64,000 nucleotides of DNA from Fimbriimonadales bacterium. Its GTDB lineage: Bacteria; Armatimonadota; Fimbriimonadia; Fimbriimonadales; ATM1. Location: assembly GCA_041744215.1 (NCBI GenBank), contig JBGTLG010000039.1, forward strand, positions 1 through 64,000, written 5' to 3'. A model generated the notes under the pieces. It worked only from the letters and a program-made list of their open reading frames with translations. It was not told where the DNA came from and searched no databases. A program made the position numbers and the translations under genes. Below, piece by piece: positions 1,421 through 46,223 of the stretch. Position 1 is the stretch's first letter. Every line of letters begins with the position of its first letter.

Positions 1421-2239
1421 CTACGCTTCCCATCCCCAGATCTGGTCCCACGCTGTTATCCAATCCTTCGCCTTGCTGACGACTTTTAGCGGCTCTACAA
1501 CTTCTACTCCGTGTCGTCCTTGGAATTTTAGTGCAGACTCAATGACACCGAGTTCGACGGTTATCTCGCAAGGCTTGCCGGGATCGTAGGGCTTCGTTGC
1601 GGTGAGGTTTCTTAAGGCAGTTCGTGCGCCGTCTTCAATCATCTGCCTCGCGCGGGCGGGGGGAATCTGCCTCGCGGAAAACCTCGTCAATCCCTTCTTA
1701 ACAGCGACAGTAGTTAATCCTTCGCCAATCAACTCACGTGATTCACGGCAGGTCGCGTCGTCTCCCGTGACAAGAAGTATAGGCACTCCATAGTGTCCGC
1801 AAAGAGCGGCATTGATGCCGACTTCGCCAACGAGATCGTGGTTGAACCACAAGTTTCGCCACGTCGTCGTGCTTATCGTGTGACACATCACCCCATCGGG
1901 CGTTCCTGATCGCGCGTGCATTCCTACGAGCAGACATGCGTCGCAGCCAGTCTCGAACATCTCTGTGTACCTAGACCAGGCGTGATGGGCAACCCATTCG
2001 CAATCAGGATCGAGCAACTCGGGAACGAGAGAGTTGAAGGTGTTTGGCCCTCCCGCCCCATGGCAATCAACGACAACGATCTGCGTCGCGCCAGCCGCTT
2101 TTGCTCCTCGCACCGCCGCGTTAATCTCTTCGGTGTAGAGCCGTCTTCCCTCTTCATACATGGAGCCGCCGTAGCTTACTTGGTCCCAAACGACGATTCC
2201 GGAGACGCCTTCCATATCCGTCATGATCAACACGCGCAT
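1421..2239 (-). CDS. M55 family D-aminopeptidase (DppA-like)
   Basis: DMEGVSG, DCHG, GMHA, HT motifs; start placed at MRVLIM. Confidence 0.9.
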   Translation of the reverse strand: MRVLIMTDMEGVSGIVVWDQVSYGGSMYEEGRRLYTEEINAAVRGAKAAGATQIVVVDCHGAGGPNTFNSLVPELLDPDCEWVAHHAWSRYTEMFETGCDACLLVGMHARSGTPDGVMCHTISTTTWRNLWFNHDLVGEVGINAALCGHYGVPILLVTGDDATCRESRELIGEGLTTVAVKKGLTRFSARQIPPARARQMIEDGARTALRNLTATKPYDPGKPCEITVELGVIESALKFQGRHGVEVVEPLKVVSKAKDWITAWDQIWGWEA

Positions 2240-2296
2240 GAGCCGATTATGGCAACCTTGCACTGAAATAATGGAAACTCTCGGTATATTCGAGCG

Positions 2297-3214: not shown

Positions 3215-3217
3215 AGC

Positions 3218-5119: not shown

Positions 5120-5177
5120 GACACTCCTTTGTATCGCGGGAATCGGGCGCAGCCCGAAAGTGAGGCGCTATTATGCC

Positions 5178-6041
5178 TCAAGGGGCGACGTAGGGCTTGA
5201 CCTCACCTCTCTCGATTTTGTCGAGCCAGTAGGTGATGCCGTGGCTCCCCTCTACCGCTTGGATACGCGGCAGCCTGTACGGATCGAGTTTTTCGGAGGT
5301 AGGTGAGGGGGCAGGATTTGCCCCGACGAGCATCGCAGCCCTCATGCGGTAAGTCTTCCCGTTGTACGCAAATTCTCTGACTAGATCACGATTCTTGGGA
5401 AAGATGCCCATCGGCAAGGCGATTGAGTTGACCGAGAATCCGTACTTCTGAGCGAAGTCGATTACCCCTGCAATCTCTTTCTTAGCGTCATCGTCACTCA
5501 TCCGAGAAAGGTCGGGGTGCGTGAGCGTATGGTTACCAATCTCGCAACCCCACTCCTTAAGAAGTTGTGCCTTGCGCTCTGCGAACTTTGGTTGACCAAA
5601 GAATGGGTTCGGCATAATGTAGAACGTTGCTATCAGCGGAAAGTCAGGATGATCTTTCGCGAAATCCAGCCAGATTCCAACTGCACAGAGCGGATCGATT
5701 GACCCATTCTCCAGCATTCGAAACTGTGAAATGCTGGAGTCATCGAATGTGACAACAACAGGAGAAGCACCTGGAGCGAGATCCATTTTGTTGTCGAGAT
5801 AGGACATCAGGGTCACAGGGCGAAATCCTAACTCGTAAACACGCTGCAGATCGTTCTTGAAATCTTCCGGGGTGCGGTCGTATCTCCCTGCGCTTGGAAC
5901 AACACGGTGATACTGAAGTATCGGCACGACGCCGTCAAGGTTTGCAGGCCTGTCGCTGACACGCTTGGGAGGAGGTTTCGGCTCGGGGGCGCGAGACGCT
6001 TCCGGACTCGTTGCACAACCAAAGGTGCAAAATAGCAGCAT
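5178..6041 (-). CDS. Polysaccharide deacetylase (CE4), probable lipoprotein
   Basis: ILQYH, TFDD, HTLTH motifs; FGC lipobox-like; start uncertain. Confidence 0.85.
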   Translation of the reverse strand: MLLFCTFGCATSPEASRAPEPKPPPKRVSDRPANLDGVVPILQYHRVVPSAGRYDRTPEDFKNDLQRVYELGFRPVTLMSYLDNKMDLAPGASPVVVTFDDSSISQFRMLENGSIDPLCAVGIWLDFAKDHPDFPLIATFYIMPNPFFGQPKFAERKAQLLKEWGCEIGNHTLTHPDLSRMSDDDAKKEIAGVIDFAQKYGFSVNSIALPMGIFPKNRDLVREFAYNGKTYRMRAAMLVGANPAPSPTSEKLDPYRLPRIQAVEGSHGITYWLDKIERGEVKPYVAP

Positions 6042-7984: not shown

Positions 7985-8512
7985 ATGAAGATCCTAGCCG
8001 CCCTCGCCTTGGGCATTTACACAAGCTTTATGGCAACTCCCCAGGAGAACTTGCCAACGGCCGACCAGTATCAAACTGCATGGAATCACGCTCTCGTAAA
8101 CGCGAAAGACAAGCAGGAAGTGCGGATTGTTGACTTCAAAGGCAGATACAAAGCGATCGTCATTGACGCGTTCGCAAGTTGGTGCGGGCCATGCCAAGCC
8201 CTGATCCCCGAAGTTAACGCGATGCACGCACAGTATGGCAAGAAGGGTGTTCTGTTCATCGGATTGAATGTTCAAGACGAATGGGCTGCGATGCAAAAGA
8301 ACATCGATTCGAAGTCGATTCAGTACCTCGTACTGCACGATTCGACTGAGGGTTCTGTGATGATGCAAAACCTCAAGATCCCTGCTATTCCAATGGCAAT
8401 TGTGCTTGATGGCACGACGCTCAAGGAGAAGGGACGATTTTTGGGCAATCGACCGGCTCACAAAGAGGGCCAGCTGAAGCTGCTCGCCGAACTTGGGGTA
8501 GAAGTCGATTAA
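7985..8512 (+). CDS. TlpA-like thioredoxin-fold disulfide reductase, exported
   Basis: ASWCGPC, AIP cis-Pro, signal peptide, SD AGGAGG. Confidence 0.88.
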   Translation: MKILAALALGIYTSFMATPQENLPTADQYQTAWNHALVNAKDKQEVRIVDFKGRYKAIVIDAFASWCGPCQALIPEVNAMHAQYGKKGVLFIGLNVQDEWAAMQKNIDSKSIQYLVLHDSTEGSVMMQNLKIPAIPMAIVLDGTTLKEKGRFLGNRPAHKEGQLKLLAELGVEVD

Positions 8513-8527
8513 CTCATTCATAATATT

Positions 8528-8555
8528 GGAACCTGCGGGGCCTTCCCGCGCGTTT
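8528..8555 (+). promoter_or_regulatory. Candidate ECF-sigma promoter
   Basis: GGAACC-N17-CGTTT. Confidence 0.4.
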
Positions 8556-8614
8556 AGAGACAGTAGCAGAGGGGCATCGCCCCAACGTTTCACAAACCAG
8601 GAGGATTGACACTA

Positions 8615-9184
8615 ATGAAGAAGTTTGCATTACTAGGCGGCGCAGCCGCTGTGCTCACCGTGATCGCGATTGCCGGCAGCTCGGTTGAGTCTGGGCTCGC
8701 CGTTGGCGACACAGTCCCGGCGTTTCACCCTAAGCATGTCGCTGGGCCCCACAAAGGGACTGACGCTTGCCCACCCTGCACCTGGGGCGCGCGCCCTCAG
8801 GTCCAAGTCTGGGTTGGCTACGACAAGTCGGAAAACTCCACCAAGATCGCCAAGGCTTTGGAATCGGCGATGGTGAAGTACGAAGACAAGGAACTCAAGG
8901 CGTTCATGATCCACATGGGACGCTGCGAGGCTTGCACGACTGATATGCCGCCGAAACTCGAGGCGACTGCGAAGGAGTCTGGGTTAGAGAAGGTGGCAGT
9001 TGCCTTTCTTCCGAACGCCGAGGACCCTGCAGCAAAGAGCTATAAGATCAACGGCAGCACGGATGTCAAGAATACGGTTTTCGTCTACTCGAAGAAGCGA
9101 GTCGTCGCCAAATTCGTGAATCTGGTGGCCGATGAAGCGGGCCTCCAAGCACTCAACGAGGCGATCGCTAAGGTCGTCCAGTAG
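8615..9184 (+). CDS. Exported redoxin-like hypothetical protein with two CxxC motifs
   Basis: Signal peptide; GLAVGDTVPAF; CPPC and CEAC; SD GGAGG. Confidence 0.7.
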   Translation: MKKFALLGGAAAVLTVIAIAGSSVESGLAVGDTVPAFHPKHVAGPHKGTDACPPCTWGARPQVQVWVGYDKSENSTKIAKALESAMVKYEDKELKAFMIHMGRCEACTTDMPPKLEATAKESGLEKVAVAFLPNAEDPAAKSYKINGSTDVKNTVFVYSKKRVVAKFVNLVADEAGLQALNEAIAKVVQ

Positions 9185-22961: not shown

Positions 22962-24689
22962 TTGATGATACGCAAAATGAAAGTATTAGTTGGAGTTGCT
23001 CTAGGGGCAACGATGGTGGTGTCCGCGGTCGCGCAGACAATCACGCTTCCGGATTACTTCGTTGAGACAATCGTAGCGGGAGGGACCGGGCTTTCGCAAC
23101 CCACAACAATGGCCTTCATCGGGTCGAACGACTTCTTGATACTTGAGAAAGCGACCGGTAACGTGAAGCGCTATACGAACGGTGCGTTCCAAGGTGTTGT
23201 GCTTAATGTGCCGGTAAACTCATCCAGCGAACGTGGACTACTGGGCATCTGCTTGCATCCTGATTTTCCAGTTGTCCCTCAGGTTTATCTCTACTATTCG
23301 CGTGCGGCGACCGCAGGAGGAACGTGGTTGGACAACCGCGTCGATCGATTCAATTGGAATGGCACCAATCTGACGTTCGACATGAACATCATTTCGTATC
23401 CTTCCTCTGCATCGCAAGCTAATGGCGCGAATCACGACGGCGGAATCATCATGATTGGTCCCGACCGAAAGCTCTACGTCGTCACCGGAGATCTAAACCG
23501 TGGTCGATTTGCGAATCCTCGTATCGAGCAGAACACCAGCACTACTGCGGTTGCAGACGTTGGCGGGATTGACCGGCTTGAGCTTGACGGTGGCACACCT
23601 GTAGATAACCCTTTCATTGGTCATGCGGATCCACGCATTCGAAAGTACTTCGCCTACGGGGTACGGAACTCGTACGGCATGTGCTATGACCCAGTCACAA
23701 ACAAGGTTTGGATCACCGACAACGGGCCCAACGTTTATGACGAGATCAACTACGTTGAAGCCGGATTCAATGGCGGTTGGCTAAAAATCATGGGTCCCGA
23801 TTCGCGCAATGCGACGTACACCGAAAACGGCTTCACTTCGTTCAACGCCGGCGACCTCACAGTACTCCCAGGCTCGCACTACCGAGATCCGGAATTCAGT
23901 TGGTTGGCGCCAATCGGGGTCACATCGATTCGCTTTCTGAGCAGCGAAAAGTTCTATCCAAGTGAGCGTAATGGGATGCTCGTCGGCGATAACAACACTG
24001 GCCAACTCTACTTTTACGAGATGACTCCTGCGCGCGACGCGCTCGTCCTGTTTGGAGGAACTCTTGACAAAGTTGCTGACTCAACCGCGGAGAGGAACCA
24101 GCACAGAGTTGGAACTGGCTGGGGCGTGACCACCGACATAGTGATTGGCCCTGATGGCTATGCGTACCTCGTAAGCCTGTCGGCAGGCGCAGTTCGCCGG
24201 ATACGACCCTCGATCGAGACAGTCTATGCCAACAGCTACACGCTTAACACAGGTGTAGAGGTAGGTGGAAATCTTCAGTCGTTGCGCGAGAGCGACAACG
24301 ACCGACTATCGATTCGCGAGGTGCCACCAGTGGCGCTGGGCGGGCCGTCGGTTGTTGTGACGGTGTTTGGCCTTTCGCCGGTCCTTGCGCCCACAGAACT
24401 TCGGTTGATCGTCGAGCACTCGACTACCGGCGTTCCTGCAAGCGCGGTGACTATTCGAACGATGATGTTCAACTTCCAAACTAACTCCTACGACATCGTG
24501 GATCAACGAGCAGGAACCGCTGCCGACACTGTCGTGGAGGTAGTCATCGGAAGCAACACTTCGCGATACATTAACCAGGCCACAAATGAAGTGAGGACGA
24601 GGATCCAATACTTCGATCCTGGAACATTGTTCTCATTCGGCTGGGTGGGAAGGATAGACCAAGTCAATTGGAGAGTTCGTGTACAGTAG
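22962..24689 (+). CDS. Secreted PQQ-dependent sugar dehydrogenase (GSDH) with C-terminal beta domain, copy 1
   Basis: ERGLLG, NHDGG, GVRNSYG, DEIN; signal peptide. Confidence 0.88.
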   Translation: MMIRKMKVLVGVALGATMVVSAVAQTITLPDYFVETIVAGGTGLSQPTTMAFIGSNDFLILEKATGNVKRYTNGAFQGVVLNVPVNSSSERGLLGICLHPDFPVVPQVYLYYSRAATAGGTWLDNRVDRFNWNGTNLTFDMNIISYPSSASQANGANHDGGIIMIGPDRKLYVVTGDLNRGRFANPRIEQNTSTTAVADVGGIDRLELDGGTPVDNPFIGHADPRIRKYFAYGVRNSYGMCYDPVTNKVWITDNGPNVYDEINYVEAGFNGGWLKIMGPDSRNATYTENGFTSFNAGDLTVLPGSHYRDPEFSWLAPIGVTSIRFLSSEKFYPSERNGMLVGDNNTGQLYFYEMTPARDALVLFGGTLDKVADSTAERNQHRVGTGWGVTTDIVIGPDGYAYLVSLSAGAVRRIRPSIETVYANSYTLNTGVEVGGNLQSLRESDNDRLSIREVPPVALGGPSVVVTVFGLSPVLAPTELRLIVEHSTTGVPASAVTIRTMMFNFQTNSYDIVDQRAGTAADTVVEVVIGSNTSRYINQATNEVRTRIQYFDPGTLFSFGWVGRIDQVNWRVRVQ

Positions 24690-26436
24690 GTCACACTCAA
24701 ACAAAGTAAATCGAAGGAGCGTGAGACGATACTGCGTGTCGATCTTGCTCGCGTCAGGTGCCCTTGCAAACGCTAGCCCAGCAGCAGGGCAAACGCTAAA
24801 TCTGCAAGGGTACTTCTACGAAACAGTTGCCACGGGGTTGTCATTTCCCACTATGATGGCCTTCGTGGACCACAATGACTTCCTCGTTCTCGAAAAGAAT
24901 ACGGGAAAAGTGAAGCGATATGTGAATGGGGTGTTCGTGGGCGAAGTACTCGACTTAGCGGTGTCGAACCAAAGCGAGCGCGGACTGCTCGGTATCGTAA
25001 GTCATCCCGACTTTCCTCAAGTGCCAAAATTCTACGTATACTATTCACGAGCAACAGTTGACGGAGGAACATGGCTCGATAACAGGGTCGAGACGTTTAC
25101 ATGGAATGGCACGACGCTCGTTGTCGATCAACTGATCGCGGATTGGCCACCTGACCCCACGCAAAACAACGGGCCAAATCATGATGGCGGATACATGGTC
25201 ATCGGCCCAGATCGAAAGCTATACATCCAAACGGGAGACCTTAACCGTGGTCGATTCAACAATCCAAGAATCGAGCAAAACACAAGCTCAACTGCAGTGG
25301 CTGGCGTTGGCGCGATCGAAAGGAGAGAACTTGATGGCTCGGCTCCCCCAGACAATCCGTTCTTCTCACATTCGGATCCACGAGTTCGAAACTACTACTG
25401 CTACGGCTTTCGAAACGGTTATGGAATGGCATTTGATCCCGTCACAGACATACTTTGGATGACAGAAAACGGATCAGGCAGCTACGATGAAATCAACTAC
25501 TGTCTTCCTGGACTCAACTCCGGGTGGGTGAAAATCATGGGGCCAGACAAGCGTGACGCCTCATATGCAGAAAATGGGTTCCAGGTTTTTGATGCAGAAG
25601 ACTTGTTTTACTTGCCAGGCTCGCACTATCGCGACCCGGAGTTTAGTTGGCTGGCGCCTGTAGGAGTTACCGCACTCGAGTTCTTGCGAAGCCGAAAGTT
25701 TTACCCATCCGAGAGAAACGCAATGTTCGTCGGCGACATCAATGGCGGGCGGCTCTTTTATTTTCAACTAACGCCCTCTCGTGACGAACTCGAACTCTTT
25801 GGCGGGACTTTGGATAAGGTTGCAGACACGCTGGAAGAGCGCAATCAGCACGTCGTTGGCACTGGATTTGCAGGAATAACCGATATAAAAATTGGTCCAG
25901 ATGGTTATGCGTACATCGTCAGCTACTTCAACGGTGCTGTTTACCGCATTCGACCAATTGTTGAGACAGTCTATGCAACTTCATTGCAGATGTTGACAGG
26001 CGTCATTCAATCTGGCGGACTCGCAGAGCTCGAGGAGAGCGATGATTTGAAGTTCATCGTTCGCGAAGCCCCACCAATTGCGCTCGGCGGACCTTCTGTC
26101 GCGTTCTTTATCGAAGGCACCTCGCCGGAGGCTTCTCCAGTCGAAGTTTCCTTCGTTGCCGAATTTTCGACCAGCGCTGCGCCTGCACCCGCGACTACCT
26201 TCCGTACTAGTTTGTTCAACTTCCAAACAAACTCATACGAGATTATCGATTCCCGTGCCGGAACAGCTACGGACGTTTCTTTTGAGGTCAGCATCACGAA
26301 GAATCCTTCGCGCTTTGTCGACCCGACTTCGCGGACTATCAGAGCAAGGTTTCAAGTGCTGGATCCCGGCACCTTGTTCACGTTTGGTTGGGCTGCCCGC
26401 TTTGATACAGCCGTTTGGAAAGTAACCGTCCGTTAG
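24679..26436 (+). CDS. Secreted PQQ-dependent sugar dehydrogenase (GSDH), copy 2
   Basis: Same motifs, collinear with copy 1; start uncertain. Confidence 0.88.
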   Translation: MYSRSHSNKVNRRSVRRYCVSILLASGALANASPAAGQTLNLQGYFYETVATGLSFPTMMAFVDHNDFLVLEKNTGKVKRYVNGVFVGEVLDLAVSNQSERGLLGIVSHPDFPQVPKFYVYYSRATVDGGTWLDNRVETFTWNGTTLVVDQLIADWPPDPTQNNGPNHDGGYMVIGPDRKLYIQTGDLNRGRFNNPRIEQNTSSTAVAGVGAIERRELDGSAPPDNPFFSHSDPRVRNYYCYGFRNGYGMAFDPVTDILWMTENGSGSYDEINYCLPGLNSGWVKIMGPDKRDASYAENGFQVFDAEDLFYLPGSHYRDPEFSWLAPVGVTALEFLRSRKFYPSERNAMFVGDINGGRLFYFQLTPSRDELELFGGTLDKVADTLEERNQHVVGTGFAGITDIKIGPDGYAYIVSYFNGAVYRIRPIVETVYATSLQMLTGVIQSGGLAELEESDDLKFIVREAPPIALGGPSVAFFIEGTSPEASPVEVSFVAEFSTSAAPAPATTFRTSLFNFQTNSYEIIDSRAGTATDVSFEVSITKNPSRFVDPTSRTIRARFQVLDPGTLFTFGWAARFDTAVWKVTVR

Positions 26437-27368
26437 CGCGAAAAAAAGCTTCTGATAAAGAAGAAAAGGTTAGCGGGTCGCTCCGCAAGCCTGCGCGTGA
26501 AGTACGGATACCAACTGCTGCCGTAGGGGACATACACGCGGACAATGTTTCCACGCTTTTTGAGCTGCTGTTGAAGATTCCTCCGTATTCCGTACAGGAA
26601 TTGGTACTCGAAGCGACCGTGAGAGATGTCGCTTCGATCCGCAAACTCATTAATCTGATCAATGATTGCAGAGTCATGGGTGGCGATGCCCGGATGCACC
26701 GCATCGCGTATGAGTTTGCAGGCTGCCATCACGAACGCTTCGTTGACTGCCTTCTTTTTTGTGAGCGCAACAGCTGCTGATTCCAAGTAAGCGCCCTTGA
26801 CTAACCGTATTCGGACTCCCGCCGCCACGAGTCGCTCAATATCCGTCGGTGTCCGGTGGAGCATTGCCTGCAAAACTGTTCCAACATTTCGATGCCGCTG
26901 CGCGGCATTGAGTACCAACCGGATGGTCACGTCTGTCAGCGCACTCTCCTCCATGTCGATGCGGACGAAGATCGGAGGATCGCTGGCTGCTGCCAAAAGA
27001 CTCTCAAGCCGACCCGCGCACCTGGCCTCATCGATGTGCGCACCAAGTTGTGATAGCTTTATCGAGATGTTGATTCTCTCAGGGATCCACCCCCCGAAGT
27101 GCGGCGATTCCGAAATGGCCTGAACTAAGCTAAGGTACTCCTGGAGAGCGGCGTCAGCTTCTTCATCCGTTGCGACATTCTCGCCCAGCAGATCAAGGGA
27201 AACCTTGTAGCCCTCGGAAGCGAGGCTCTCTGCGACAGCCATCGCCTCTTCCAGGGTGTCGCCCGCGACGAAGCGCCGAACAACGCCCCTGAACACCCGG
27301 CTTCTTCGAACGAACCGCTCAATGGCCTGGTTGCGGGCGAGAGAGAGTATGAGACTGCGCAAGATCAT
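26433..27368 (-). CDS. Monofunctional proline dehydrogenase
   Basis: RFVAG, DLLGE, RIDME, RLVKGAY, ATHD, YFTRRLAERPAN. Confidence 0.92.
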   Translation of the reverse strand: MILRSLILSLARNQAIERFVRRSRVFRGVVRRFVAGDTLEEAMAVAESLASEGYKVSLDLLGENVATDEEADAALQEYLSLVQAISESPHFGGWIPERINISIKLSQLGAHIDEARCAGRLESLLAAASDPPIFVRIDMEESALTDVTIRLVLNAAQRHRNVGTVLQAMLHRTPTDIERLVAAGVRIRLVKGAYLESAAVALTKKKAVNEAFVMAACKLIRDAVHPGIATHDSAIIDQINEFADRSDISHGRFEYQFLYGIRRNLQQQLKKRGNIVRVYVPYGSSWYPYFTRRLAERPANLFFFIRSFFSR

Positions 27369-27638: not shown

Positions 27639-30600
27639 ATGAAAGAGATCAAGCACGCCTCGAGTCCGCTAAGCCAGGTTCTCGAGGTCCCGAACCTCAT
27701 AGAGGTTCAATTGAACTCATACAAGCAGTTTCTTGAACAAGGACTTCCCGAACTTCTAAAAAGCTTCTCCCCGATCAAAGATTTCACCGGGTCGAACTAC
27801 ATAGAGTTTCTCGATTTCTCGCTCGGAGAGCCTAAGTACGACATCGACGACTGTCGCGACCGCGACGTTACGTTTGAGGCGCCCATCAAGGTGCGGGTCC
27901 GACTAGGCGGCCGAGACCGGGAGGTCATCGAGTCGGAGGTCTACCTCGGAGACTTGCCCCTGATGACGAACCAAGGGACGTTCATCATCAATGGACGTGA
28001 AAGAGTCATCGTCTCCCAACTAAGCCGTAGCCCCGGCGTTTACTTCTTTGACGAGCCCCAGCAGGCGACAAAGTGGGAACTCCGCCACGTCCTCATGCAT
28101 CGGCTTCCCCTCCGTGCGGAGGTGCTCCCAAACCAAGGCAAGTGGCTTGAGGTCAGCGAAGCCGAACCGAATTTCGTCCTGTTCGCACCGCTGAATCAGA
28201 GCAAAAAGATCCCCGTAACCCAGTTGCTCAAGGTTTTGTCCGCGTTCGAGACGGCGCGCGTCCCGACGCGATTGCTGGTTGAGAACGCAGTGAACAAGCG
28301 GCTAGCTGAGCCTCTTGCCGACCCGGAGACCGGCGAGGTCCTCGGCGACGCCGAAACTCTGCTTACGCAAGAATTCATTGACAGCCTTCCAAAGAGCGTC
28401 CGGGGCACCAAGGCGGTGGTTCACACCCCCGTCGGATCGAACGAGGAGCTCGTTACCTCTTTCGGTGTCAAACACGTGCTGAAGTCCCCGAAAGAAGGCG
28501 ACCTGATCGGAAAGCGCGCGACAGGGGACATCAAGGATGGAGACGAGGTCGTAATCGCGAAATCTGGCCGGATTGATCGAGACGTGGCAAAGAAGATCGC
28601 TGCGATGGGCCTGAAGCGACTTGAGGTCATTGAGGTCAACCCATTTATTGACGCGACTCTCGAACACGACACTACGGATTCGACCAAAACCGCCCTCAAA
28701 GACCTGCATAGAAAGTTGCGTCCAGGAGAGTCACCTGACGAGGAGAACGCTAAGTCACAGTTCTATTCCCTGTTCCTGGACCCTAGAAACTATGATTTAG
28801 GCCGAGTCGGGCGACACCAGATGAATCGCCGCCTCGGGATCGAACTCCCGGACACGGCGCGCAACATAACCATCGAAGATGTGGTTGCGATGATCAATCG
28901 ACTCGGGCTACTGCTCGAAGGCGAGATCGGCGGCGACAACATCGACCACCTTCAAAACAAGCGCATCAAATCGATCGGCGAATTGCTTCTCAATCAGATG
29001 CGTGTCGGCCTCAGCCGGATGGAGAAGGTAGCTCGAGAGAGAATGACAAGCGCCGAGCCAGAGAACTTGCTGCCCGGGATCATTCTGAGCGTGAAGCCAG
29101 TTACGGCAAGCATCCGCAGCTTCTTCAGCAGTAGTCACCTGAGCACGTTCATGGATCAGACCAACCCGCTAAGCGAACTGTCAAACAAGCGGAGACTCTC
29201 GACTCTGCCGGATCGCAGACCGTCCGCGTCTGGGCGCGCGGGAGTTGTCGACGCGCAACGTGAAGTTCAGCCAAGCGAATATGGCCGAATCTGCCCCATC
29301 GAGACGCCGGAAGGGCCCAACGTAGGACTTATGAAACAGCTCAGCGTATACGCAAAGATCGATGAAGACGGTTTCTTGCACGCGCCTTTCCGAACCGTCA
29401 AGAACGGCAAGGTTACTGACGAACTCAGCTATCGCGTATCAGGAGACGAGGACGACAAAAAAGTAGCCCCGCCGGATACACCTCTTGGCCCCAACGGCGA
29501 AATCTTGGACGATCCTGTTATGGTTCGTTTCCGAGGCGAATTCCCCGAAGTTCCTCGCAACGACGTTGAGCTTATGGACGCTTCGCCGCTCATCTTTTCT
29601 GTCGCAGCTTCCTGTGTTCCATTCCTGAATCACGACGACGGGGCACGGGCCCTGATGGGCGCGAATATGCAGCGCCAGGCAGTGCCCTTGCTCCGTTCAG
29701 AGGGGGCCTTCGTTAGCACCGGTTATGAAGAGAGAATCGCCCGCGATACAGGGACGACCATCCTCGCGCACCGGTCGGGCATTGTGAGAAACGTCACGGC
29801 GTTGTCGATCCAGATTGAAGCCGACGACGACGGCACTCTCGATGTGTACCCTCTGGAGCACCTGCGCCAGTCGAACAAGTCTACGTGCTTCACGCACAGA
29901 CCGCAAGTGTTTCCGGACGAGCGGGTCACAAAGGGTCAGCCAATCGCCGATGGCCCATCCTGTCACGACGGAAAACTTGCCCTTGGCAAGAACCTCGTTG
30001 TCGCGTTCATGCCGTGGCGTGGCTACAACTTCGAAGACGCGATTTTGGTGAGCGAGCGACTGGTCAAGGAAGACACGTTTACGTCCATCCATATCGAACG
30101 ATACGACACCGAAGCGGTCGACACAAAGCTTGGGCCGGAAGAAATCACCCGAGATATTCCGAACGTCGGTGAAGAGGCTTTAAAGGATCTTGACGAAAGT
30201 GGCATCGTCCGGATCGGAGCCGACGTGCGTCCTCTCGACATCCTCGTAGGAAAGGTCGCTCCGAAGGGTCAGGTTGAACTAACGGCCGAAGAGCGACTCA
30301 TCATCGCGATCTTCGGGAAGAAAGCGGAAGAAACTCGCGACGTATCGTTGCGAGTCCCACACGGCGAGCAAGGCACAGTCATCGACGTGAAGGTATTCAG
30401 CCGCTACAAGTACCGCGACAAGGCGACCGGCAAGATTTTCCACGAGTCGAAGAAGCGCGAGCACATGGTGAGTGAGATAACAGGCGGCGATCTGGAGCAG
30501 ATTCCAGGTGATGAGCTACCTGCCGGAACGAACATGACTGTCCAGGTGCATGTCGCGCAAAAGCGCAAGATTACGGTCGGAGACAAGATGGCGGGGCGGC

Positions 30601-31655
30601 ACGGAAACAAGGGTGTCATTTCGCGGATCGTCGCTGAGGAAGATATGCCTTTCCTCGCCGATGGACGCCCGGTGGACATCGTGCTGAACCCACTCGGCGT
30701 ACCGAGCCGATTGAATGACGGTCAGATGCTTGAGTCGCTGCTCGGATTGGCGGGAGCGAAGCTTGGCATTCGCTTCATCTGCCCTGCGTTCGAGGGCTCA
30801 AGGCCTGAGCAGGTGATGGCGGAGATGCGGCGCATCGCCGAACAAACTCGCCGAGACGTTTTGCAGGCATACGTAAACTCGGAACTGGGCCTCAATCTCA
30901 GTTTCAAGCGAGGTGTGGCTGTACAAGAGATGCTGAATGAGATCGAGGACGCGCTTCGCAAGCTTGGGAAGACCCGGCTCGAGGCGGTATCGAGGCTCGT
31001 AGCCGCCGAACCTGCGATAAGCGTCGCAGACATGGATCCTGAAGCCGAGTTCGTTGTTGAAGACAATGAACCCGCGCATAAGGCTCCTGATCCAGTGTAC
31101 ATATCGATCCTCGATGCGATCCGACAACGTGTTTGGGTTCGCGCCGGAATTGATGAGACAACCGGAAAGAGTCTGTTACGCGATGGTTGGTCTGGCGACT
31201 TCTTGGAGTTCCCCGTCTCTGTTGGCGTGATGTATATGTTCAAGCTTGAGCACCTCGCCGAAGAGAAGATTCACGCTCGGAGCATTGGCCCATATTCTCT
31301 GGTAACTCAGCAGCCGCTTGGCGGAAAAGCCCAGTTCGGCGGCCAGCGCTTCGGAGAAATGGAAGTCTGGGCGCTCGAAGCGTATGGCGCGGCGAATACA
31401 TTGCAGGAGATCATCACGATCAAGTCTGACGATGTGATGGGCAGAGTCAAAACGTACGAGAGCATCGTGCGTGGAGAAACAATGCTCGAGCCAGGGATAC
31501 CAGAATCGTTCAAGATCCTCGTCAACGAGCTAAGGAGCCTCGGCTTGCGCGTCACAGTTGAGGACGCAAACAACCGGGAAATCAGCCTCCGAGACCTAGA
31601 CGAGCATTCGCAGGGCGACGACATGAAGCTCGCGAGATCAGTCGGCTTCTTTTGA
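27639..31655 (+). CDS. rpoB: RNA polymerase beta subunit (divergent)
   Basis: CPIETPEG, RALMGANMQRQ, GDKMAGRHGNKG, GGQRFGEMEVWALEAYG. Confidence 0.98.
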   Translation: MKEIKHASSPLSQVLEVPNLIEVQLNSYKQFLEQGLPELLKSFSPIKDFTGSNYIEFLDFSLGEPKYDIDDCRDRDVTFEAPIKVRVRLGGRDREVIESEVYLGDLPLMTNQGTFIINGRERVIVSQLSRSPGVYFFDEPQQATKWELRHVLMHRLPLRAEVLPNQGKWLEVSEAEPNFVLFAPLNQSKKIPVTQLLKVLSAFETARVPTRLLVENAVNKRLAEPLADPETGEVLGDAETLLTQEFIDSLPKSVRGTKAVVHTPVGSNEELVTSFGVKHVLKSPKEGDLIGKRATGDIKDGDEVVIAKSGRIDRDVAKKIAAMGLKRLEVIEVNPFIDATLEHDTTDSTKTALKDLHRKLRPGESPDEENAKSQFYSLFLDPRNYDLGRVGRHQMNRRLGIELPDTARNITIEDVVAMINRLGLLLEGEIGGDNIDHLQNKRIKSIGELLLNQMRVGLSRMEKVARERMTSAEPENLLPGIILSVKPVTASIRSFFSSSHLSTFMDQTNPLSELSNKRRLSTLPDRRPSASGRAGVVDAQREVQPSEYGRICPIETPEGPNVGLMKQLSVYAKIDEDGFLHAPFRTVKNGKVTDELSYRVSGDEDDKKVAPPDTPLGPNGEILDDPVMVRFRGEFPEVPRNDVELMDASPLIFSVAASCVPFLNHDDGARALMGANMQRQAVPLLRSEGAFVSTGYEERIARDTGTTILAHRSGIVRNVTALSIQIEADDDGTLDVYPLEHLRQSNKSTCFTHRPQVFPDERVTKGQPIADGPSCHDGKLALGKNLVVAFMPWRGYNFEDAILVSERLVKEDTFTSIHIERYDTEAVDTKLGPEEITRDIPNVGEEALKDLDESGIVRIGADVRPLDILVGKVAPKGQVELTAEERLIIAIFGKKAEETRDVSLRVPHGEQGTVIDVKVFSRYKYRDKATGKIFHESKKREHMVSEITGGDLEQIPGDELPAGTNMTVQVHVAQKRKITVGDKMAGRHGNKGVISRIVAEEDMPFLADGRPVDIVLNPLGVPSRLNDGQMLESLLGLAGAKLGIRFICPAFEGSRPEQVMAEMRRIAEQTRRDVLQAYVNSELGLNLSFKRGVAVQEMLNEIEDALRKLGKTRLEAVSRLVAAEPAISVADMDPEAEFVVEDNEPAHKAPDPVYISILDAIRQRVWVRAGIDETTGKSLLRDGWSGDFLEFPVSVGVMYMFKLEHLAEEKIHARSIGPYSLVTQQPLGGKAQFGGQRFGEMEVWALEAYGAANTLQEIITIKSDDVMGRVKTYESIVRGETMLEPGIPESFKILVNELRSLGLRVTVEDANNREISLRDLDEHSQGDDMKLARSVGFF

Positions 31656-31704: not shown

Positions 31705-32001
31705 ATGGCAAGTGTAAGATTCGTATTCGACAGCGGCGACGTAATCATCCCCGCAGAGACAGACCGCAGCGCAAAGCTGATCATGTCAGGCTTCCGGCGA
31801 AAGATGGAGGCCGGCGATGAGATGATCGATGTCAAAGGAAAGGACGGCGTTCGGCTAGTTAATGCGGGCAAAGTGAACTACATCGAAATCGTCGGCGGCT
31901 CAGCCCGCAGCAGCAAGCCCGCGGCACGCGGAGGCGCAACGGCGAAGAAGACAGTTCGTAAGGCGAAGACCACTCCCGCGCGCGGTCGTAAGCGACGATA
32001 A
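31705..32001 (+). CDS. Small hypothetical protein with basic tail between rpoB and rpoC
   Basis: 98-aa ORF with AGGAG upstream; ~63-aa globular part plus K/R/A-rich tail. Confidence 0.8.
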   Translation: MASVRFVFDSGDVIIPAETDRSAKLIMSGFRRKMEAGDEMIDVKGKDGVRLVNAGKVNYIEIVGGSARSSKPAARGGATAKKTVRKAKTTPARGRKRR

Positions 32002-32046: not shown

Positions 32047-35000
32047 ATGCCCGACGTAACTCTTTTTGAAAAAATCCGTGTGGGAATTGCGAGCCCGGAA
32101 GACGTTCTCGCATGGTCTCATGGCGAAGTAAAGAAGCCCGAGACCATCAACTATAGAACGTTCAAGCCGGAGCGTGATGGACTTTTCTGCGAGCGGATTT
32201 TTGGACCGGTCAAAGACTGGGAGTGCCACTGCGGTCGATACAAGAAGGTCAAGTACAAGGGCATCGTGTGTGAGAGGTGTGGCGTCGAAGTCACCCGGTC
32301 GCGCGTGCGCCGCGAGAGGATGGGTCACATCGAACTCGCGGCGCCCGTGTGTCACATTTGGTTTTTGAAGGGCGTCCCTTCGCCGGTTGCGCTTCTCCTA
32401 AACATCGGACCACGCGATCTTGAAAAGGTCGTCTACTTTGGGTCGTTCATCGTCATCGACCTTGACAAAGTGGGCCTCGACGAGGGCCGGTCACAGATTG
32501 AAGAACTAGTCGAGCTCGAAAAGTCCGCGCTCGAGCAAAGCATGGCTGAGCTTGAGGAAGAGATTCGCGACGCATTCGCCAGCGAGTTGGAGGAGAACAA
32601 GGACGAGTATGACGAGTCAATCATCAAGGATCGCACGAAAGCGGTCAATGATCGGATAAAGGCCGAGCAGCGAGACTCCCAAGATCGCGTCAAAGAGATG
32701 GATGTCGCGCTGGAAGTACTGTATAAGCTTGAGCAGAATCAACTGATCGAGGAAGACAAGTTCCGAGCTGTCGATCGGATGTTGAATGCTGTGTCCCGTC
32801 GAAGCGGCAAGCAGTACAACCAGATGCTTAAAGCTGGCATCGGTGCGGCTGCGATCAAGGAGCTTCTGCTCCGGGTCAACCTCGACTCGACTTCCAAGGA
32901 GCTTCGCGCAGGCATCATGCGGAGCCAAGGACCAAAGCGCGCGCGCATGATTAAGCGCCTCGAAATTGTCGAAGCGTTTATCAACTCGAAGACTAAGCCC
33001 GAGTGGATGGTCCTAGAGGTAATGCCCGTGATCTCGCCTGAGCTACGGCCCATGGTTCAGCTTGATGGCGGCCGGTTCGCGACATCCGATCTCAACGATC
33101 TCTACCGACGCATCATCAATCGGAACAATCGTCTGCGCAAGATTATAGAAATCCGGGCTCCTGAATCAATCATCAATCATGAGAAGCGTTTGCTGCAAGA
33201 AGCGGTAGACGCACTTGTCGATAATGGCCGTCGGTCCCGACCGGTGGTCGGCAGCAACAATCGTGCTTTGAAGTCCTTGAGCGACATGCTTAAAGGCAAA
33301 GAGGGACGGTTCCGAAAGAACTTGCTTGGAAAGCGTGTGGACTATTCTGGAAGAGCTGTCATTGTGGTGGGTCCTCACCTCAAGCTCCATCAATGCGGTT
33401 TGCCGAAAGAAATGGCGCTTGAGCTGTTCAAACCCTACGTGATGAAGGCGCTCGTGGACCAAAAGCTCACGCAGAACATCAAGACTGCGAAGCGCATGAT
33501 CGACCGAATGCACCCGGCAGTGTGGGATGCTCTTGAGGAAGTCATCAAAGATCACCCGGTGCTGCTTAACCGCGCTCCAACGCTCCACCGATTCGGCATT
33601 CAAGCCTTCGAACCGATCCTCGTCGACGGCAAGGCGATCCAGGTGCATCCACTCGTGTGTCCGCCCTTCAATGCGGATTTTGACGGTGACCAGATGGCCG
33701 TGCACGTTCCTCTCAGCGCTGCCGCACAGGCCGAAGCACGCATCCTAATGCTGTCGAGCAATAACCTGTTCTCGCCAGCGGATGGACAGCCGACGATGGC
33801 ACCGGTACAGGACATCATTCTTGGATCGTACGCACTAACTGCTCTCAACCGTAAAGCGCTTACGCGCTTCGAAGCGGAGACAGCTGCGCATCGGAAGGAT
33901 CCCGAAAAAGTGCGCGCACCGATGACGTTCTCGTCCCCTGACGAGGCAATCCTCCTTGCAACGCACCCAGATGCCGCGGTTCGGATTCCACTGAACGACC
34001 CCGTTTTCGTCCGTGTCCGACGTCCATCCGGATTAGCAAATGAAGCGGGCGAGTTCGAAGAGTGGGAGACTGTCGTGCGACAAATGACGCCCGGTCAGTT
34101 GATCTTCCACGAAGTGCTCCCGTACCCAGTAAAGCACCACGATGATTGGATTGGAGTCGAGTTCACAAAACGAAACCTGACTCGGCTCATCACTCACGTA
34201 CGCAACGCAACTTCAACGCAAAAGACTGTCGAGATGTTGGATCAAATCAAGGAGCTCGGATTCGAGTGGGCGACACGATACGGATTGACAATCGCGCTTT
34301 CGGACGTAGACCCGCGCTCCGCTCCAACTTCCGACCTATCGCTTGTCAATGAAATGGCACGGCGCGAAATCGCAGGTCAGGCCATCAGCCATGATATCGA
34401 GAAAGATTTTGAAACTGCAGGACGATTGAAGGGCCTGATTGAGGCTAAGATCGGCGAAGCTAAAAAGGCGACCACCGAAGTTCGAAAGCACTATCAGCTT
34501 GGCACGATGGCGACGAACGAGCGAGACCGAAAGCTACAAACGATTTGGCAGGGCGCGTTCGGAGCGCTGTCCGACACTATTGTTACGGAGATGGGGCAAT
34601 TCAACCCGCTTCGAATGATGGTCGACTCAGGCGCAAGGGGATCGCGTGAGCAGTTGGTTCAGCTGATGGCAACGCGCGGAATGTTCCGTAACAACTTCAA
34701 TCAGCCGATCACGGACATTGTAGGTGGCAACGGGTTGTTCGATGGCTCACGTGTGTTCGAGTACTTCGTGTCGATGTTCGGTGCCCGAAAGGGTGTCACG
34801 GATACCGCGCTCTTGATGGGTTACTCCGGATTCATCGCCCGCCGTCTCGTTGATGTGTCACACGACATCGTGATCAAAGCTGAGGACTGTGGCACCACCC
34901 AGGCCATCTACGTCGCGAAGATTATCAAAGAAGGGGACGTCGTTGAGCAACTCAGCATTCGATGCAAGGGTCGAACGTCGATTGAACGAGTTACATTGCC

Positions 35001-36762
35001 TGGCAGCAAGGAAGAAGTCGTGCTCTGCGAAGCTGGTGACGCCTTTGGCGACAAGGGTGCGGCGCTCTTAGACGAAGCCGACGCTCTCTATTACAAGCTT
35101 CGAAGCGATGCTCAAGAGGCGAAAGACGTCGATAAGGCGACCGAGAAAGTCGAGGCCGACTTCCGCAAACACGGCTTCCGCATTGGTGAGCACGGCGAGT
35201 TGCAGGTATCAATCAGGAGTCCGCTTACGTGCGATCTCGACAGCGGCATCTGTTCCAAGTGCTATGGCTGGGACCTCTCGACCAAGAAGTTCGCCGAGGT
35301 TGGCCTTGCAGTTGGCGTCATCGCAGGTGAAACGATGTCTGAACCTCTGTCTCAGTTGACGATGAGAACATTCCACCACGGCGGCGTTGCGACGGGCACG
35401 GTCCTTACTGGATACAACCAAGCTGGGCGAATGTACGGCACACTACACCAAGAGCTCAAGGTTGACCTCAAGACTGATGAGCTTGACGTGCATGAGATGC
35501 CGGACTTTATTGGTGAGCAGCGCGGCTTGCTCGATGAACTCACGGGGAAGGCCGAGCGGCTCAAGGCCGAAGCAGAGAAGCCGACAAAGAAGACTAAAAA
35601 GTCCTTGACGCCTCCTCCGCGAACCACAGCGAACCGTCAACTCGCTCGGGAGTTGGTGGAGCACTCGTTCTATCACTACGTAGGCATACCCTTCGTAGAG
35701 AGGCTTCTTGAAGCTCGTCGCGCGCCCAAGGGTGAGGCAGTCGTGTCTCGCTACGATGGTGTGGTCGACACAATCAAGGTCGGTCAGCTTGGTCGATGGA
35801 TTGTGATCCGGGCTATCGTCACCCCTGGGGAGCACGACATCGCTGGTAAGACGATCGCTGAGCGGGTCCTCCATCCAGAAACGAAAGAGACACTTATCGA
35901 AGCTGGCACAGAGATCAACAAGGCAGCTACCGACAAGCTTGCGAAGCACGGCGTGGAGAAGCTCACGATTTTCGAAGTGATCCTTCTTCCGAAGCGTCGA
36001 ATCCTTCTGGTTGAGACAGGCGACAAAGTCAAAGCGGGCGATCCTCTCACCCAGGGTCCGCTCGATCTTGGCAGCCTCCTCGAGTTCCGAGGAGTTCGCG
36101 CGGTGCAAGAATATCTGGTAAGTGAACTTCAGTCGATTTACAAGTCGAATGGCGTTAGCATCAACGACCGTCACTTGGAGGTCATCTGTCGCCAGATGCT
36201 GCGAAAGGTTCGCATAAAGGAAGGCGGTGACTCAAAGTTCTTGCCCGGCCAAATCATAGATCGATTCGCTTTCCGAAGAGAGAACGAACGTCTTCAGCAG
36301 ATGATTGCAGCGAAAGAAGAAGTCGAGTATGAGGACATTGAAACCAGCGACATGAAGAAACGGCTTCCGATTCCTGCCACGGCTGATGCAGTCATTCAGG
36401 GCATCACCGAAGCCGCCCTAACGACTGAGTCATTCCTATCGGCGGCCTCCGCGCAGAAGACTGTTCGTGTGCTTACAGACGCGGCCGTCAAGGGGCGCAC
36501 AGACGATCTAGTGGGCCTAAAGGAAAACGTGATCATTGGGCGGCTGATCCCCGCCGGATCAGGATTCCCGGCATACCGAAACATCGCCGTCAAGACGACG
36601 CGAGAGCCGGTGTGGGCAAAGGCTCCTATCACGGCACTCGCGAGTATGCAAGACCGCGAGGATGTGGAGGAGATCGAAGAATTCGACGAGAGCGATATCG
36701 GAGATATCCGATCGCTCGCTGAGAGCCTCGGCGCAGAACGCGTCGACGAAGCAGACGTTTAG
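32047..36762 (+). CDS. rpoC: RNA polymerase beta' subunit (divergent)
   Basis: N-terminal Zn ribbon, [30 protein letters not shown]. Confidence 0.98.
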
Positions 36763-44296: not shown

Positions 44297-44824
44297 ATGA
44301 CCACACTTCTCGCTACCCTCATCCTCTCGACCGGATTTGCGCCGGCCCAGGATCCAAACCCGCAGGTTTCCTTGACAATTCAGTCACGGGGAGAGATGGT
44401 CATTGAGCTTTTTCCGCAAGACGCGCCGAAAACTGTGGCCCAGTTTCTCAAACTGGTCAACAGTGGCTTCTACAACGGTGTTCTGTTTCACAGGGTTGAG
44501 AACTACCCCCGCCCGTTTATCGTGGTGACTGGTGATCCGTTGACCAAAACCCTTCCGCTGACCGACCCGCGAATTGGGACCGGGGGGAGCGGCAACACGC
44601 TTCTCTTCGAAAGCAACAAGCGCTCCTTTGCCAATGGAACCGTCGGGCTTGCTCGCGACCAGAAGGATAAGAACAGCGGAGACAGCCAGTTCTTCATCTG
44701 CAACGGCCCGCAGAAGTTTCTTGACGGCTCATACGTCGCGTTCGGGCAAGTCGTAAAGGGCATTGAGATTATCCCCAACATTGCGTTGGGTGATAAGGTT
44801 ACGTCGGTACGCCAAACTCGCTGA
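44297..44824 (+). CDS. Exported cyclophilin-type peptidylprolyl isomerase
   Basis: APKTV, FYNGVLFHRV, SQFFI, LDGSYVAFGQV. Confidence 0.92.
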   Translation: MTTLLATLILSTGFAPAQDPNPQVSLTIQSRGEMVIELFPQDAPKTVAQFLKLVNSGFYNGVLFHRVENYPRPFIVVTGDPLTKTLPLTDPRIGTGGSGNTLLFESNKRSFANGTVGLARDQKDKNSGDSQFFICNGPQKFLDGSYVAFGQVVKGIEIIPNIALGDKVTSVRQTR

Positions 44825-44879
44825 TCAAGGCACTGCCCGATGGGATGCGGCCCCGGCACCCAGGTACCCTTCGGATCAG

Positions 44880-46049
44880 ATGCACTACATTGACCCATTC
44901 GGAAAGGACGACCTTGTCACGCTTCGAGCCATCCGTGAAGATCATTGTGTCTCGCTCTACCTGCCAACCCACCGGAAAGGGTCAGAGGTTGCTCAAGATC
45001 CCATTCGGCTTAAGAACCTGATTGCGCGAGCTGAGGAAGTCCTCAAGACCAGGGGAGCACGCTGGGACGTCATCGAATCCATCCTAGGCGAAGCGAAACA
45101 GCTTCTCGACAAGGAGTTTTTTTGGCAGCACCAGGCAGACGGTCTAGCGATATTCGCAAAACCAGGCGAAACACGAGCGTTTCGAACCGGAGTCGGCTTT
45201 GGCGAGGCGGTGACAGTGAGCGGTCGCTTTGACTTAGCGCAGATGGTTCGACTTCTCGCTTCCGATGGCCGATTCTACGTGCTCGCCCTGGGGGAGCAAA
45301 TGGTCAAGCTGCTGGAGGGTACGCGATTCAGCGTCTCCGAGATAGCGTTGGACAATCTGCCCCAATCCATTGACGACGCCCTCAAACTGGATGATCCTCA
45401 AAAGCAACTGCAGTACCATACGGGCGCAGGCGCCAGCTCCGGCGGCGGTAGAGCGGCAATCTTTCACGGACACCGATTCGATGGATCCGAAAACAAAGAG
45501 AACCTGAAGAGATTCTTCAACATCGTCGACCGCGGGCTGGAGCCCCTGTTTAAGCATTACCCTGCGCCGGTCGTCTTGGCTGCGGTGGAGTACTACTTCC
45601 CACTTTACTTGGAGGTCGCGAACATTCCGGGACTCGTCGAGGGCGGTATCAAAGGCAACCCCGACGTCATGCGAGACGAAGAGCTGCACAAGGCGGCTTG
45701 GAGCATCGTGTACCCAGCGTTCAAGAAGTCGCAGGAGGATGCACTGGAGCGTTACGCTCAAGTTATCGGTACCGGCCAAACTACACAGGGCGTGGAGGGC
45801 ACCGCGATAGCGGCATATCAAGGAAGGGTGGACACACTGTTCGTCGACACTGAGCCAGACGTTTGGGGCGAAATCGACGAAACAACCCAATCGGTCAGCA
45901 TCCACGAGGTTGAAAACGCAGGCGATCTCGAACTCGTCAATGAGACGACTCTTGCTGTTCTGACAAGCGGTGGAAGGGTGTTTACGATGCCAAGCGCAGA
46001 GGTTCCAGGCAGTGGCCCGATGGCCGCGATCCTTCGCTACGCTGGCTGA
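44880..46049 (+). CDS. baeRF family (aeRF1/Pelota-like) protein
   Basis: CVSLYLPTH, DPIRLKNL, GLAIFA, FYVLAL, AAYQGRVDTL, AAILRY. Confidence 0.8.
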   Translation: MHYIDPFGKDDLVTLRAIREDHCVSLYLPTHRKGSEVAQDPIRLKNLIARAEEVLKTRGARWDVIESILGEAKQLLDKEFFWQHQADGLAIFAKPGETRAFRTGVGFGEAVTVSGRFDLAQMVRLLASDGRFYVLALGEQMVKLLEGTRFSVSEIALDNLPQSIDDALKLDDPQKQLQYHTGAGASSGGGRAAIFHGHRFDGSENKENLKRFFNIVDRGLEPLFKHYPAPVVLAAVEYYFPLYLEVANIPGLVEGGIKGNPDVMRDEELHKAAWSIVYPAFKKSQEDALERYAQVIGTGQTTQGVEGTAIAAYQGRVDTLFVDTEPDVWGEIDETTQSVSIHEVENAGDLELVNETTLAVLTSGGRVFTMPSAEVPGSGPMAAILRYAG

Positions 46050-46056
46050 GAGAGGG

Positions 46057-46131
46057 TGGAGCCTTCGACGGGAATTGAACCCGTGACCTCCTCTTTACCA
46101 AAGAGGTGCTCTACCCCTGAGCTACGAAGGC
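46057..46131 (-). tRNA. tRNA-Thr(GGT)
   Basis: GCCTTCGTAGCTCAGGGGTAGAGCACCTCTTTGGTAAAGAGGAGGTCACGGGTTCAATTCCCGTCGAAGGCTCCA. Confidence 0.95.
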
Positions 46132-46137
46132 GAGACT

Positions 46138-46223
46138 TGGTGGGGAGTGTAGGATTCGAACCTACGTAGGCATTCGCCGGCAGATTTACAGTCTGCTCCC
46201 ATTGGCCACTCGGGCAACTCCCC
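46138..46223 (-). tRNA. tRNA-Tyr(GTA)
   Basis: GGGGAGTTGCCCGAGTGGCC...GCAGACTGTAAATCTGC, long variable arm, GGTTCGAATCC, CCA end. Confidence 0.95.

Follow-up and report, generated by a model that had tools for sequence, protein, structure and literature searches.

How far can the moving parts of a cellular RNA polymerase (RNAP) be replaced while the enzyme remains an ordinary one? The question is raised by rpoC, the gene for the beta' subunit, in a 64,000-nucleotide stretch of DNA from a Fimbriimonadales bacterium of the phylum Armatimonadota (assembly GCA_041744215.1, contig JBGTLG010000039.1; hereafter the window). No moving parts of cellular RNAPs are better conserved than the bridge helix, the trigger loop and fork loop 2, and what they do in translocation and pausing is still debated largely on the basis of single-site mutants, many of them sick. 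A sequence-only reading of the window had pointed to eight substitutions in the bridge helix of its beta', a framing that proved too narrow: the whole mobile module is rewritten, across both beta' and beta. The enzymes that share this state, which we refer to as the variant clade, are bona fide bacterial RpoB and RpoC proteins that depart from the canonical consensus of the bridge helix and of fork loop 2.

Altered positions in beta' and beta

Both window genes score as equivalogs of their families, with rpoB adjoining rpoC, and the window beta' carries Rpb1 domains 1-5 in order (Pfam PF04997, PF00623, PF04983, PF05000 and PF04998). The + strand reads through the bridge helix within the rpoC open reading frame (ORF), and the reverse strand of 34756-34866 contains a stop codon. 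A blastn search of the region against E. coli genomes gave no match, and residues were numbered by the rpoB/rpoC products of E. coli K-12 (L080) in a MAFFT alignment of 102 beta' sequences. All eight changes named earlier (T776M, H777F, K789L, T790M, A791G, N792Y, Y795F and T797A) were correct against E. coli K-12, to which we add I774V, L783V, A784T and L796I. To judge how invariant these positions are, we used 290 beta' sequences lacking the variant, among which 82 different bridge-helix strings occur, a sample of best matches to the query and not an unbiased census. Positions 790 (T), 795 (Y) and 797 (T) were the same in 82/82 strings, position 789 was K or R in 82/82, and position 791 was A in 78 and S in 4; positions 776 (T/S/A/C), 777 (H/R/N/Y) and 792 (D/N/E/K) were naturally variable. 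The description of the eight positions as near-invariant thus holds for five of them (789, 790, 791, 795 and 797), but not for 776, 777 and 792.

Where the canonical consensus reads K/R789-T790-A/S791 with Y795 and T797, the clade has L-M-G, with F at 795 in 13/15 and A at 797 in 15/15 sequences. The changes fixed in the clade at conserved columns of the helix are A779T (13/14; the window retains A), L783V, T790M, A791G, Y795F (12/14), L796I and T797A, and T776M, H777F/Y, K789L and N792Y are found in addition. The framework of the helix is kept, including the motifs GxRKG, DTAL and RRLVD, the residues G778, R780, K781, G782, D785, T786, A787, R798 and R799, and F773.

To place the helix in the context of the whole subunit, we counted the columns in which 88 other beta' sequences show at least 90% conservation but at least 80% of 14 clade rows share a different residue. 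Altogether, 38 of 414 conserved columns were fixed to a new residue, and these were concentrated in a module comprising E. coli beta' residues 736-805, 915-940 and 1130-1150, in which 25 of 72 conserved columns were changed (35%) versus 13/342 elsewhere (3.8%). The same count over all 62 clades of the beta' tree that have 3-30 members gave 38 changes for the variant clade, 25 of them in the module, and 21 changes with a single one in the module for the next unrelated clade (Bacteroidota-like), all other unrelated clades having 0-1 in the module; the concentration of changes in the module therefore exceeds chance. The sister sequences L003, L004 and L006 were canonical at nearly all of the 38 changed columns.

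Within the module, the F-loop was the strongest hot spot relative to the sisters (16/25 columns), with G742A, M743T, L746M, M747F, E756T, P758V and N762G fixed and P750 replaced by N in 14/14 clade sequences. The N-terminal base of the trigger loop carries the fixed changes Q921E, S922T, I923M, G924S, G927L and T928S, and its C-terminal helix carries D1133Y, L1138I, R1140F, E1143R and F1145L in 14/14. The catalytic residues between Q929 and H936 (QLTMRTFH, including M932, R933 and H936) were kept in all 14 sequences. Outside the module, F1325 in region H, found in 85/85 other sequences, is A in 14/14 of the clade, and 11 further fixed changes are scattered elsewhere in the subunit. The insertion between the two trigger-loop helices is not specific to the variant, as other Armatimonadota carry insertions at the same site of the alignment; it was predicted to be helical by AlphaFold2 (AF2), at a predicted local distance difference test (pLDDT) score of only 50-74 in a fragment model, and is not of the SI3 type by Pfam.

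The beta subunit shows a corresponding pattern. Comparing the window beta and 12 partner beta subunits (P0123-P0134) with 101 other beta sequences, we found 15 of 438 conserved columns replaced (L538R, V550A, H551Q, H554E, I569V, I572M, E672N, A676G, M1107L, I1109D and another five). These lie bunched in fork loop 2, D-loop, link region and 1107 loop, which would together form the beta side of the rewritten module. In fork loop 2, L538R, V550A, H551Q and H554E were fixed in 13/13 clade members, and the canonical sequence (GPGGL ... VRDVH ... SHYGR) was absent from the clade; L538, H551 and H554 were each present in 101/101 other beta sequences. Similarly, I572 was found in 101/101 others and was M in 11/13 of the clade. 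The metal and nucleoside triphosphate (NTP) motifs of beta around the active site were retained. Fimbriimonas ginsengisoli (beta P0198), the only cultured relative seen, has a canonical fork loop.

Elsewhere in beta, the rifamycin-pocket His site at residue 516 (29184-29186, + strand), which we take to correspond to E. coli H526, is Asn in the whole Fimbriimonadales-like group (13/13 variant and 10/10 canonical sequences), and Q513 is Thr in the same group. Judging by these residues, rifamycin sensitivity may be naturally reduced across the order.

Table. Coordinates of the two genes and of the altered or retained elements in the window (residue ranges as in the window proteins, with approximate E. 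coli equivalents where given).
Feature	Position	Strand	Remarks
rpoB (beta)	27639..31655	+	1338 amino acids, intact, directly upstream of rpoC; TIGR02013 1385.5 bits (cutoff 801.15)
beta fork loop 2	29193..29294	+	residues 519-552; rewritten, 4-residue insertion
beta D-loop segment	29295..29342	+	I569V, I572M
beta link region	29616..29654	+	E672N, A676G, N677A
beta 1107 loop	30693..30728	+	M1107L (others 100/100 M), I1109D
rpoC (RNA polymerase beta')	32047..36762	+	1571 amino acids, intact ORF; TIGR02386 1375.2 bits (cutoff 963.5)
beta' catalytic loop	33658..33693	+	NADFDGD retained; two flanking residues changed (A456P fixed)
beta' F-loop	34651..34752	+	residues 869-902, ~E. coli 736-768; almost wholly replaced
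beta' bridge helix	34753..34863	+	residues 903-939, ~E. coli 769-805
Trigger-loop N-terminal base helix and catalytic segment	35311..35388	+	residues 1089-1114, ~E. coli 915-940
Trigger-loop insertion	35389..35661	+	~90 amino acids, charged-residue-rich, between the two trigger-loop helices
Trigger-loop C-terminal helix	35662..35727	+	residues 1206-1227, ~E. coli 1130-1150
beta' region H segment	36439..36474	+	F1325A, T1329V

Distribution and tempo of the change

To determine who carries the variant, we searched a word index of 5.8 billion protein clusters with query residues 820-1000. Of the 120 beta' proteins listed, 11 carried it, namely that of the window and P0004-P0013 (70-89% identical in the region), and the other 109 did not; among the 120, identity fell to 43% at the best non-variant match. 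The carriers, uncultured soil and water bacteria, bear the source names 'Fimbriimonadales bacterium' and 'Armatimonadetes bacterium'. A scan of GTDB with one genome per species yielded at least 79 loci, 71 of them spanning the bridge helix, and among those listed 3 were variant (L001, L002 and L005) and 68 canonical. The nearest relatives were canonical, namely L003 (65% overall identity) and L004 (62%), both titled Fimbriimonadales, and L006 (58%). L001 and P0011 are the same sequence, and L002 shares 95% identity with P0013, so that there are 13 distinct variant beta' sequences, full or partial, in addition to the fragment P0242. An index-free HMMER search of 1.84 billion 50%-identity representatives, with an 86-residue query covering F-loop and bridge helix, gave 2631 matches at E <= 0.001. 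Among the best 150 of these, the variant was found only in P0013 and the fragment P0242, a single 50%-identity cluster, so the motif is not widespread among RpoC sequences. The variant is rare and phylogenetically narrow, being confined to one monophyletic sub-clade of Fimbriimonadales.

In the beta' tree the clade is monophyletic, with a stem of 0.355, and is nested among canonical Fimbriimonadales-like sequences; in the beta tree its 13 members group with a support of 1.0 and a stem of 0.186, with the same sisters. Identity within the clade is 0.95 for the module and 0.76 for the rest of the protein, and between clade and sisters it is 0.49 and 0.62, respectively; between the sisters and other phyla the figures are 0.74 and 0.49. 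On the stem of the clade, the ratio of module to rest divergence is about three times the usual one. The high identity of the module within the clade and its low identity to the sisters indicate one old burst followed by purifying selection, and full-length identity within the clade, which goes down to 0.63, shows that the rewrite is old and the new state long held. The part of the protein that normally evolves slowest thus changed fastest on one branch and has been slowest again since. The background sets behind these figures are weighted toward relatives and best matches, and all variant sequences are metagenome-derived.

A few sequences deserve separate mention. L006, a canonical relative, has H777Y alone (about 8497-8740), and P0246, canonical in bridge helix and trigger loop, has an F-loop segment partly like that of the variant; such partial steps could have survived from a labile state that preceded the burst. 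The high score of P0243 is explained by a duplicated canonical fragment. L018 is titled a Janthinobacterium lividum metagenome-assembled genome (MAG), and its rpoC groups with Capsulimonadaceae (Armatimonadota); L067, titled Chitinophagales, groups with Syntrophomonadaceae, and both are probably mis-binned contigs. In L002 the rpoB gene is split in two ORFs (1599-5600), and in L046 rpoC is broken inside the bridge helix (about 8366-8600), which likely reflects assembly errors or MAG frameshifts.

Proposed mechanism, inhibitor sites and rival explanations

Our preferred reading, to which we assign a probability of roughly 60%, is that the window encodes the ordinary and sole housekeeping RNAP of a deep Fimbriimonadales sub-clade, in which a single ancient episode rewrote the whole mobile module for nucleotide addition and purifying selection has held it fixed since. 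The residues doing the chemistry are untouched, and on this reading what was altered would be the packing between parts that move against each other. Residues 773-780 of the bridge helix face fork loop 2 and residues 785-790 face the trigger helices (Jovanovic 2011, PMC3077646), and F-loop and beta link touch the folded trigger loop (PMC5101437). The placement of T790 and A791 at the templating base, as given in the sequence-only reading, agrees with the literature, in which T790 and M932 stack on the i+1 pair and the backbone of A791 lies by the template base (PMC13538358; PMC3077646). K789 contacts L930, K789A harms growth and T790A lowers pyrophosphorolysis (PMC3077646). The N-terminal hinge of the helix is marked by E. 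coli H777, which equals M808 of M. jannaschii (PMC3077646; PMC2988716), and from the offset of 31 in PMC3077646 we infer that the C-terminal hinge lies at about E. coli 791-794; both proposed hinges would thus be touched in the clade.

All partner elements named in these contact papers are altered in the clade, and many changes run from polar to hydrophobic or aromatic residues (T776M, H777F, K789L, T790M, N792Y, D1133Y and R1140F, with G927L listed alongside them). As the contact partners have all changed, and often in this direction, we read the whole as a three-helix bundle that, with its cap, was repacked by co-evolution: the N-terminus of the bridge helix (T776M, H777F) would pack against the new fork loop 2, its centre (K789L, T790M, A791G, N792Y) would face the trigger helices and the i+1 base pair, and F-loop and link region would be repacked against the folded trigger loop. 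Since the catalytic motifs are kept, the enzyme is most likely catalytically competent, and it may have a re-tuned balance between the closed (catalytic) and the open (translocating) state, leading to other translocation rates and another response to pauses.

Altered translocation or pausing together with inhibitor insensitivity, as the sequence-only reading had put forward, is plausible by analogy with E. coli. There, weaker contacts between bridge helix and beta give faster catalysis, slower forward translocation, blunted regulatory pausing and CBR703 resistance (Malinen 2014, PMC3959191), and enzymes carrying beta V550A or beta' P750L move forward more slowly, withstand CBR703 and are insensitive to pausing (PMC3959191). 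The clade resembles these alleles in that the identical beta V550A is native in 13/13 members and the P750 site at the same interface is also replaced, by N. It differs in that its changes arose in nature long ago and go with dozens of partner changes, F773 being kept and H777 being F or Y, not A; moreover, F773V and P750L are reported not to be viable in E. coli without CBR, and the altered interface is wild type in the clade (PMC3959191). The bridge helix contributes to the streptolydigin and CBR sites, as the sequence-only reading had it (table in PMC5101437; PMC3959191). By the same table, streptolydigin targets bridge helix, trigger loop and fork loop 2, salinamide the bridge-helix hinge, F-loop and link, and CBR the fork-loop region, F-loop and bridge-helix hinge, so that many side chains used by these inhibitors in E. 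coli RNAP would be missing in the clade. Compared by site and not by laboratory-allele residue, the clade differs from its sisters at 9/14 salinamide-resistance sites (beta' 690, 738, 748, 758, 763, 779 and 783; beta 569 and 677; PMC4029172), and also at the salinamide contact residues 746 and 747.

Several observations weigh against the preferred reading or parts of it. The salinamide sites beta' 697, 775, 780 and 782 and beta 675 are unchanged, G782 and beta D675 being high-level sites, and most of the substituted residues differ from those of laboratory resistance alleles. Salinamide-resistant alleles can also be hypersusceptible to streptolydigin and CBR703 (Degen 2014, PMC4029172), and with such cross-hypersusceptibility and non-identical residues the sequence alone does not establish insensitivity. 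In vitro, the archaeal bridge helix withstands drastic substitutions immediately N-terminal of its C-terminal hinge (PMC2988716), and in E. coli the N792A, S793A and Y795A substitutions proved silent (PMC3077646), so that part of the change could be functionally mild. An AF2 model of a 413-residue beta' fragment (32-row alignment) had a mean pLDDT of 64.6, and below 50 in F-loop and bridge helix (fragment residues 10-90) and in the trigger loop (243-275), making this prediction uninformative for the module, including the continuity of the helix. Finally, all clade members are metagenome-assembled, and the word 'sole' rests on no second, canonical copy from the three variant-bearing, incomplete GTDB assemblies having been found among the loci listed, at least 79 in all.

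A bolder form of the preferred reading, which we offer as tentative, sees a differently wired engine, in which a hydrophobic bundle of bridge and trigger helices and a new fork loop 2 would make the polymerase pause-insensitive and resistant to multiple inhibitors, an alternative solution to the translocation ratchet with a natural inhibitor of the bridge-helix cap as its possible driver. Here Leu789 would lie against L930, and Met790 and Met932 would clamp the i+1 pair, with Gly791 making room; bolder still, the altered i+1 template pocket may be tuned to a chemically modified genome.

The alternative that survives best, though we hold it to be rather unlikely, is functionally neutral compensatory drift, in which a destabilising change in the module was fixed by chance and set off a compensating cascade, the enzyme behaving like any bacterial RNAP. 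The changes are indeed limited to mutually contacting elements, as compensation predicts (PMC3077646, PMC5101437), the C-terminal hinge of the archaeal bridge helix tolerates radical mutagenesis (PMC2988716), and the window holds no linked gene or cluster that would suggest a selective agent. Drift sits poorly, however, with a ratio of module to rest divergence on the stem roughly three times the usual one and with the replacement of residues that vary in none of the other sequences compared (T790, T797, G924, G927, R1140 and beta L538, H551 and H554), and single E. coli substitutions at the interface, V550A included, have clear kinetic phenotypes (PMC3959191).

An arms race is unlikely as the cause. 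It would have a natural inhibitor, small molecule or protein, acting at the bridge-helix cap or the trigger-loop pocket and driving the rewrite, which would make the clade RNAP inherently resistant to inhibitors of that class. Streptolydigin, salinamide and CBR are stated to target the very elements that changed (PMC5101437), and the 9/14 differing salinamide sites and the fixed beta V550A and beta' P750N fit this idea. Yet no change is seen at beta' G782 and beta D675, where salinamide resistance is of high level, and about 50 fixed changes are far more than would be needed, because single substitutions give resistance in the laboratory (PMC4029172). The surroundings of rpoBC are ordinary housekeeping genes (methionyl-tRNA synthetase, succinate dehydrogenase, NAD-dependent ligase, GlmS and RNase P protein), and no biosynthetic or resistance cluster was found in the 64-kb window, nor any producer cluster or resistance context near rpoBC.

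We consider it very improbable that the locus encodes a specialised second polymerase, a paralogue standing to a canonical enzyme elsewhere in the genome as plant Pol IV/V stand to Pol II. Divergent active-centre motifs are typical of specialised paralogues, as in the bridge-helix proline of Pol IV/V (PMC2988716), and the genomes are incomplete MAGs, which could hide another copy. Against this, the beta and beta' trees are congruent, the clade forming in both an orthologous branch whose sisters, from other genomes, are the same, the rpoB-rpoC operon holds the same small intergenic gene as canonical relatives, the three variant-bearing GTDB assemblies contributed no second locus to the at least 79 found, and clade members differ less from one another in the module than in the remainder of the protein.

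An artefact of any kind (pseudogene, error of assembly or reading frame, foreign segment) is effectively refuted: nothing was found in its favour, 13 distinct sequences from several sources share the same states, the ORFs are intact, and the changes are spread over no fewer than nine separate stretches of the two genes. A compensated frameshift as the origin of F-loop and fork loop 2 was also rejected, the alternative frames lacking the canonical peptide (local scores 9-18 versus 43-65), as was a foreign donor or convergent carriers, of which there were none in the best 150 of the 2631 representative matches.

Genomic surroundings and comparison with known systems

The usual upstream neighbours, rplKAJL, do not precede rpoBC; that place (22962-27368) is taken by two tandem glucose/sorbosone dehydrogenase paralogues and a divergent proline dehydrogenase. 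The spacer between rpoB and rpoC is occupied by a 98-residue ORF (31705-32001, + strand), which tblastn found kept at the same place in L002 of the variant clade and in the canonical Fimbriimonadales L003 and L004. AF2 predicts for its residues 1-63 a small beta-alpha-beta domain (pLDDT ~87), followed by a basic disordered tail; its top fold match in the PDB was Rv3208A (E 2.2e-3, TMt 0.69), and DUF3107 of Pfam was weakly matched in 1/6 members. The product may be an order-specific RNAP-associated protein. Further downstream, a 428-residue protein with a baeRF (bacterial archaeo-eukaryotic release-factor-like) domain (44763-46049, + strand) stands beside tRNA-Thr and tRNA-Tyr at 46057-46223.

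Literature searches, one of them covering the top 10 of 3,840 papers, gave no prior description that links Armatimonadetes or Fimbriimonad* to RNAP features of the bridge helix, rpoB or rpoC. The clade enzyme is natural and viable, with about 50 positions in these conserved moving parts altered jointly and with close canonical sisters for comparison, and thus supplies a ready covariation map of which residues have to change jointly. It provides a natural test of the hinge and ratchet models and of how the enzyme steps along DNA, and it gives a view of how much natural drift is possible in the pockets that bind streptolydigin, salinamide and CBR-type inhibitors.

Compared with the canonical RNAP of E. 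coli K-12, the clade enzyme has the same genes, domain order, operon and catalytic loop, the same trigger-loop residues 929-936 and the same bridge-helix framework, but replaces 38/414 (beta') and 15/438 (beta) otherwise conserved positions. Among bacteria, a proline at the H777 position in a few species is a single-position oddity (PMC2988716), and the Deinococcus RNAP is similar in that natural variation of the trigger loop alters the properties of the enzyme; it differs in that the variation described there concerns the trigger loop only and few residues, with no coordinated changes of bridge helix and fork loop (PMC4756841). The closest natural parallel found is the RNAP of Nanoarchaeum equitans and other DPANN archaea, with lineage-wide, clustered substitutions at otherwise invariant positions in several active-centre elements of different subunits (Nottebaum and Weinzierl 2021, PMC8204694); radical substitutions in bridge helix, trigger loop, fork loop 3 and metal B leave that enzyme active in vitro (PMC8204694). 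The Nanoarchaeum enzyme differs in being archaeal and in belonging to a symbiotic organism with a reduced genome, with a helix-breaking proline and changes at metal B (PMC8204694), whereas the Fimbriimonadales clade is bacterial, has an ordinary genome context, no proline in the helix and intact metal-binding motifs. The likeness to Nanoarchaeota-type RNAPs is thus best read as an analogy of kind, not a homology of the changes.

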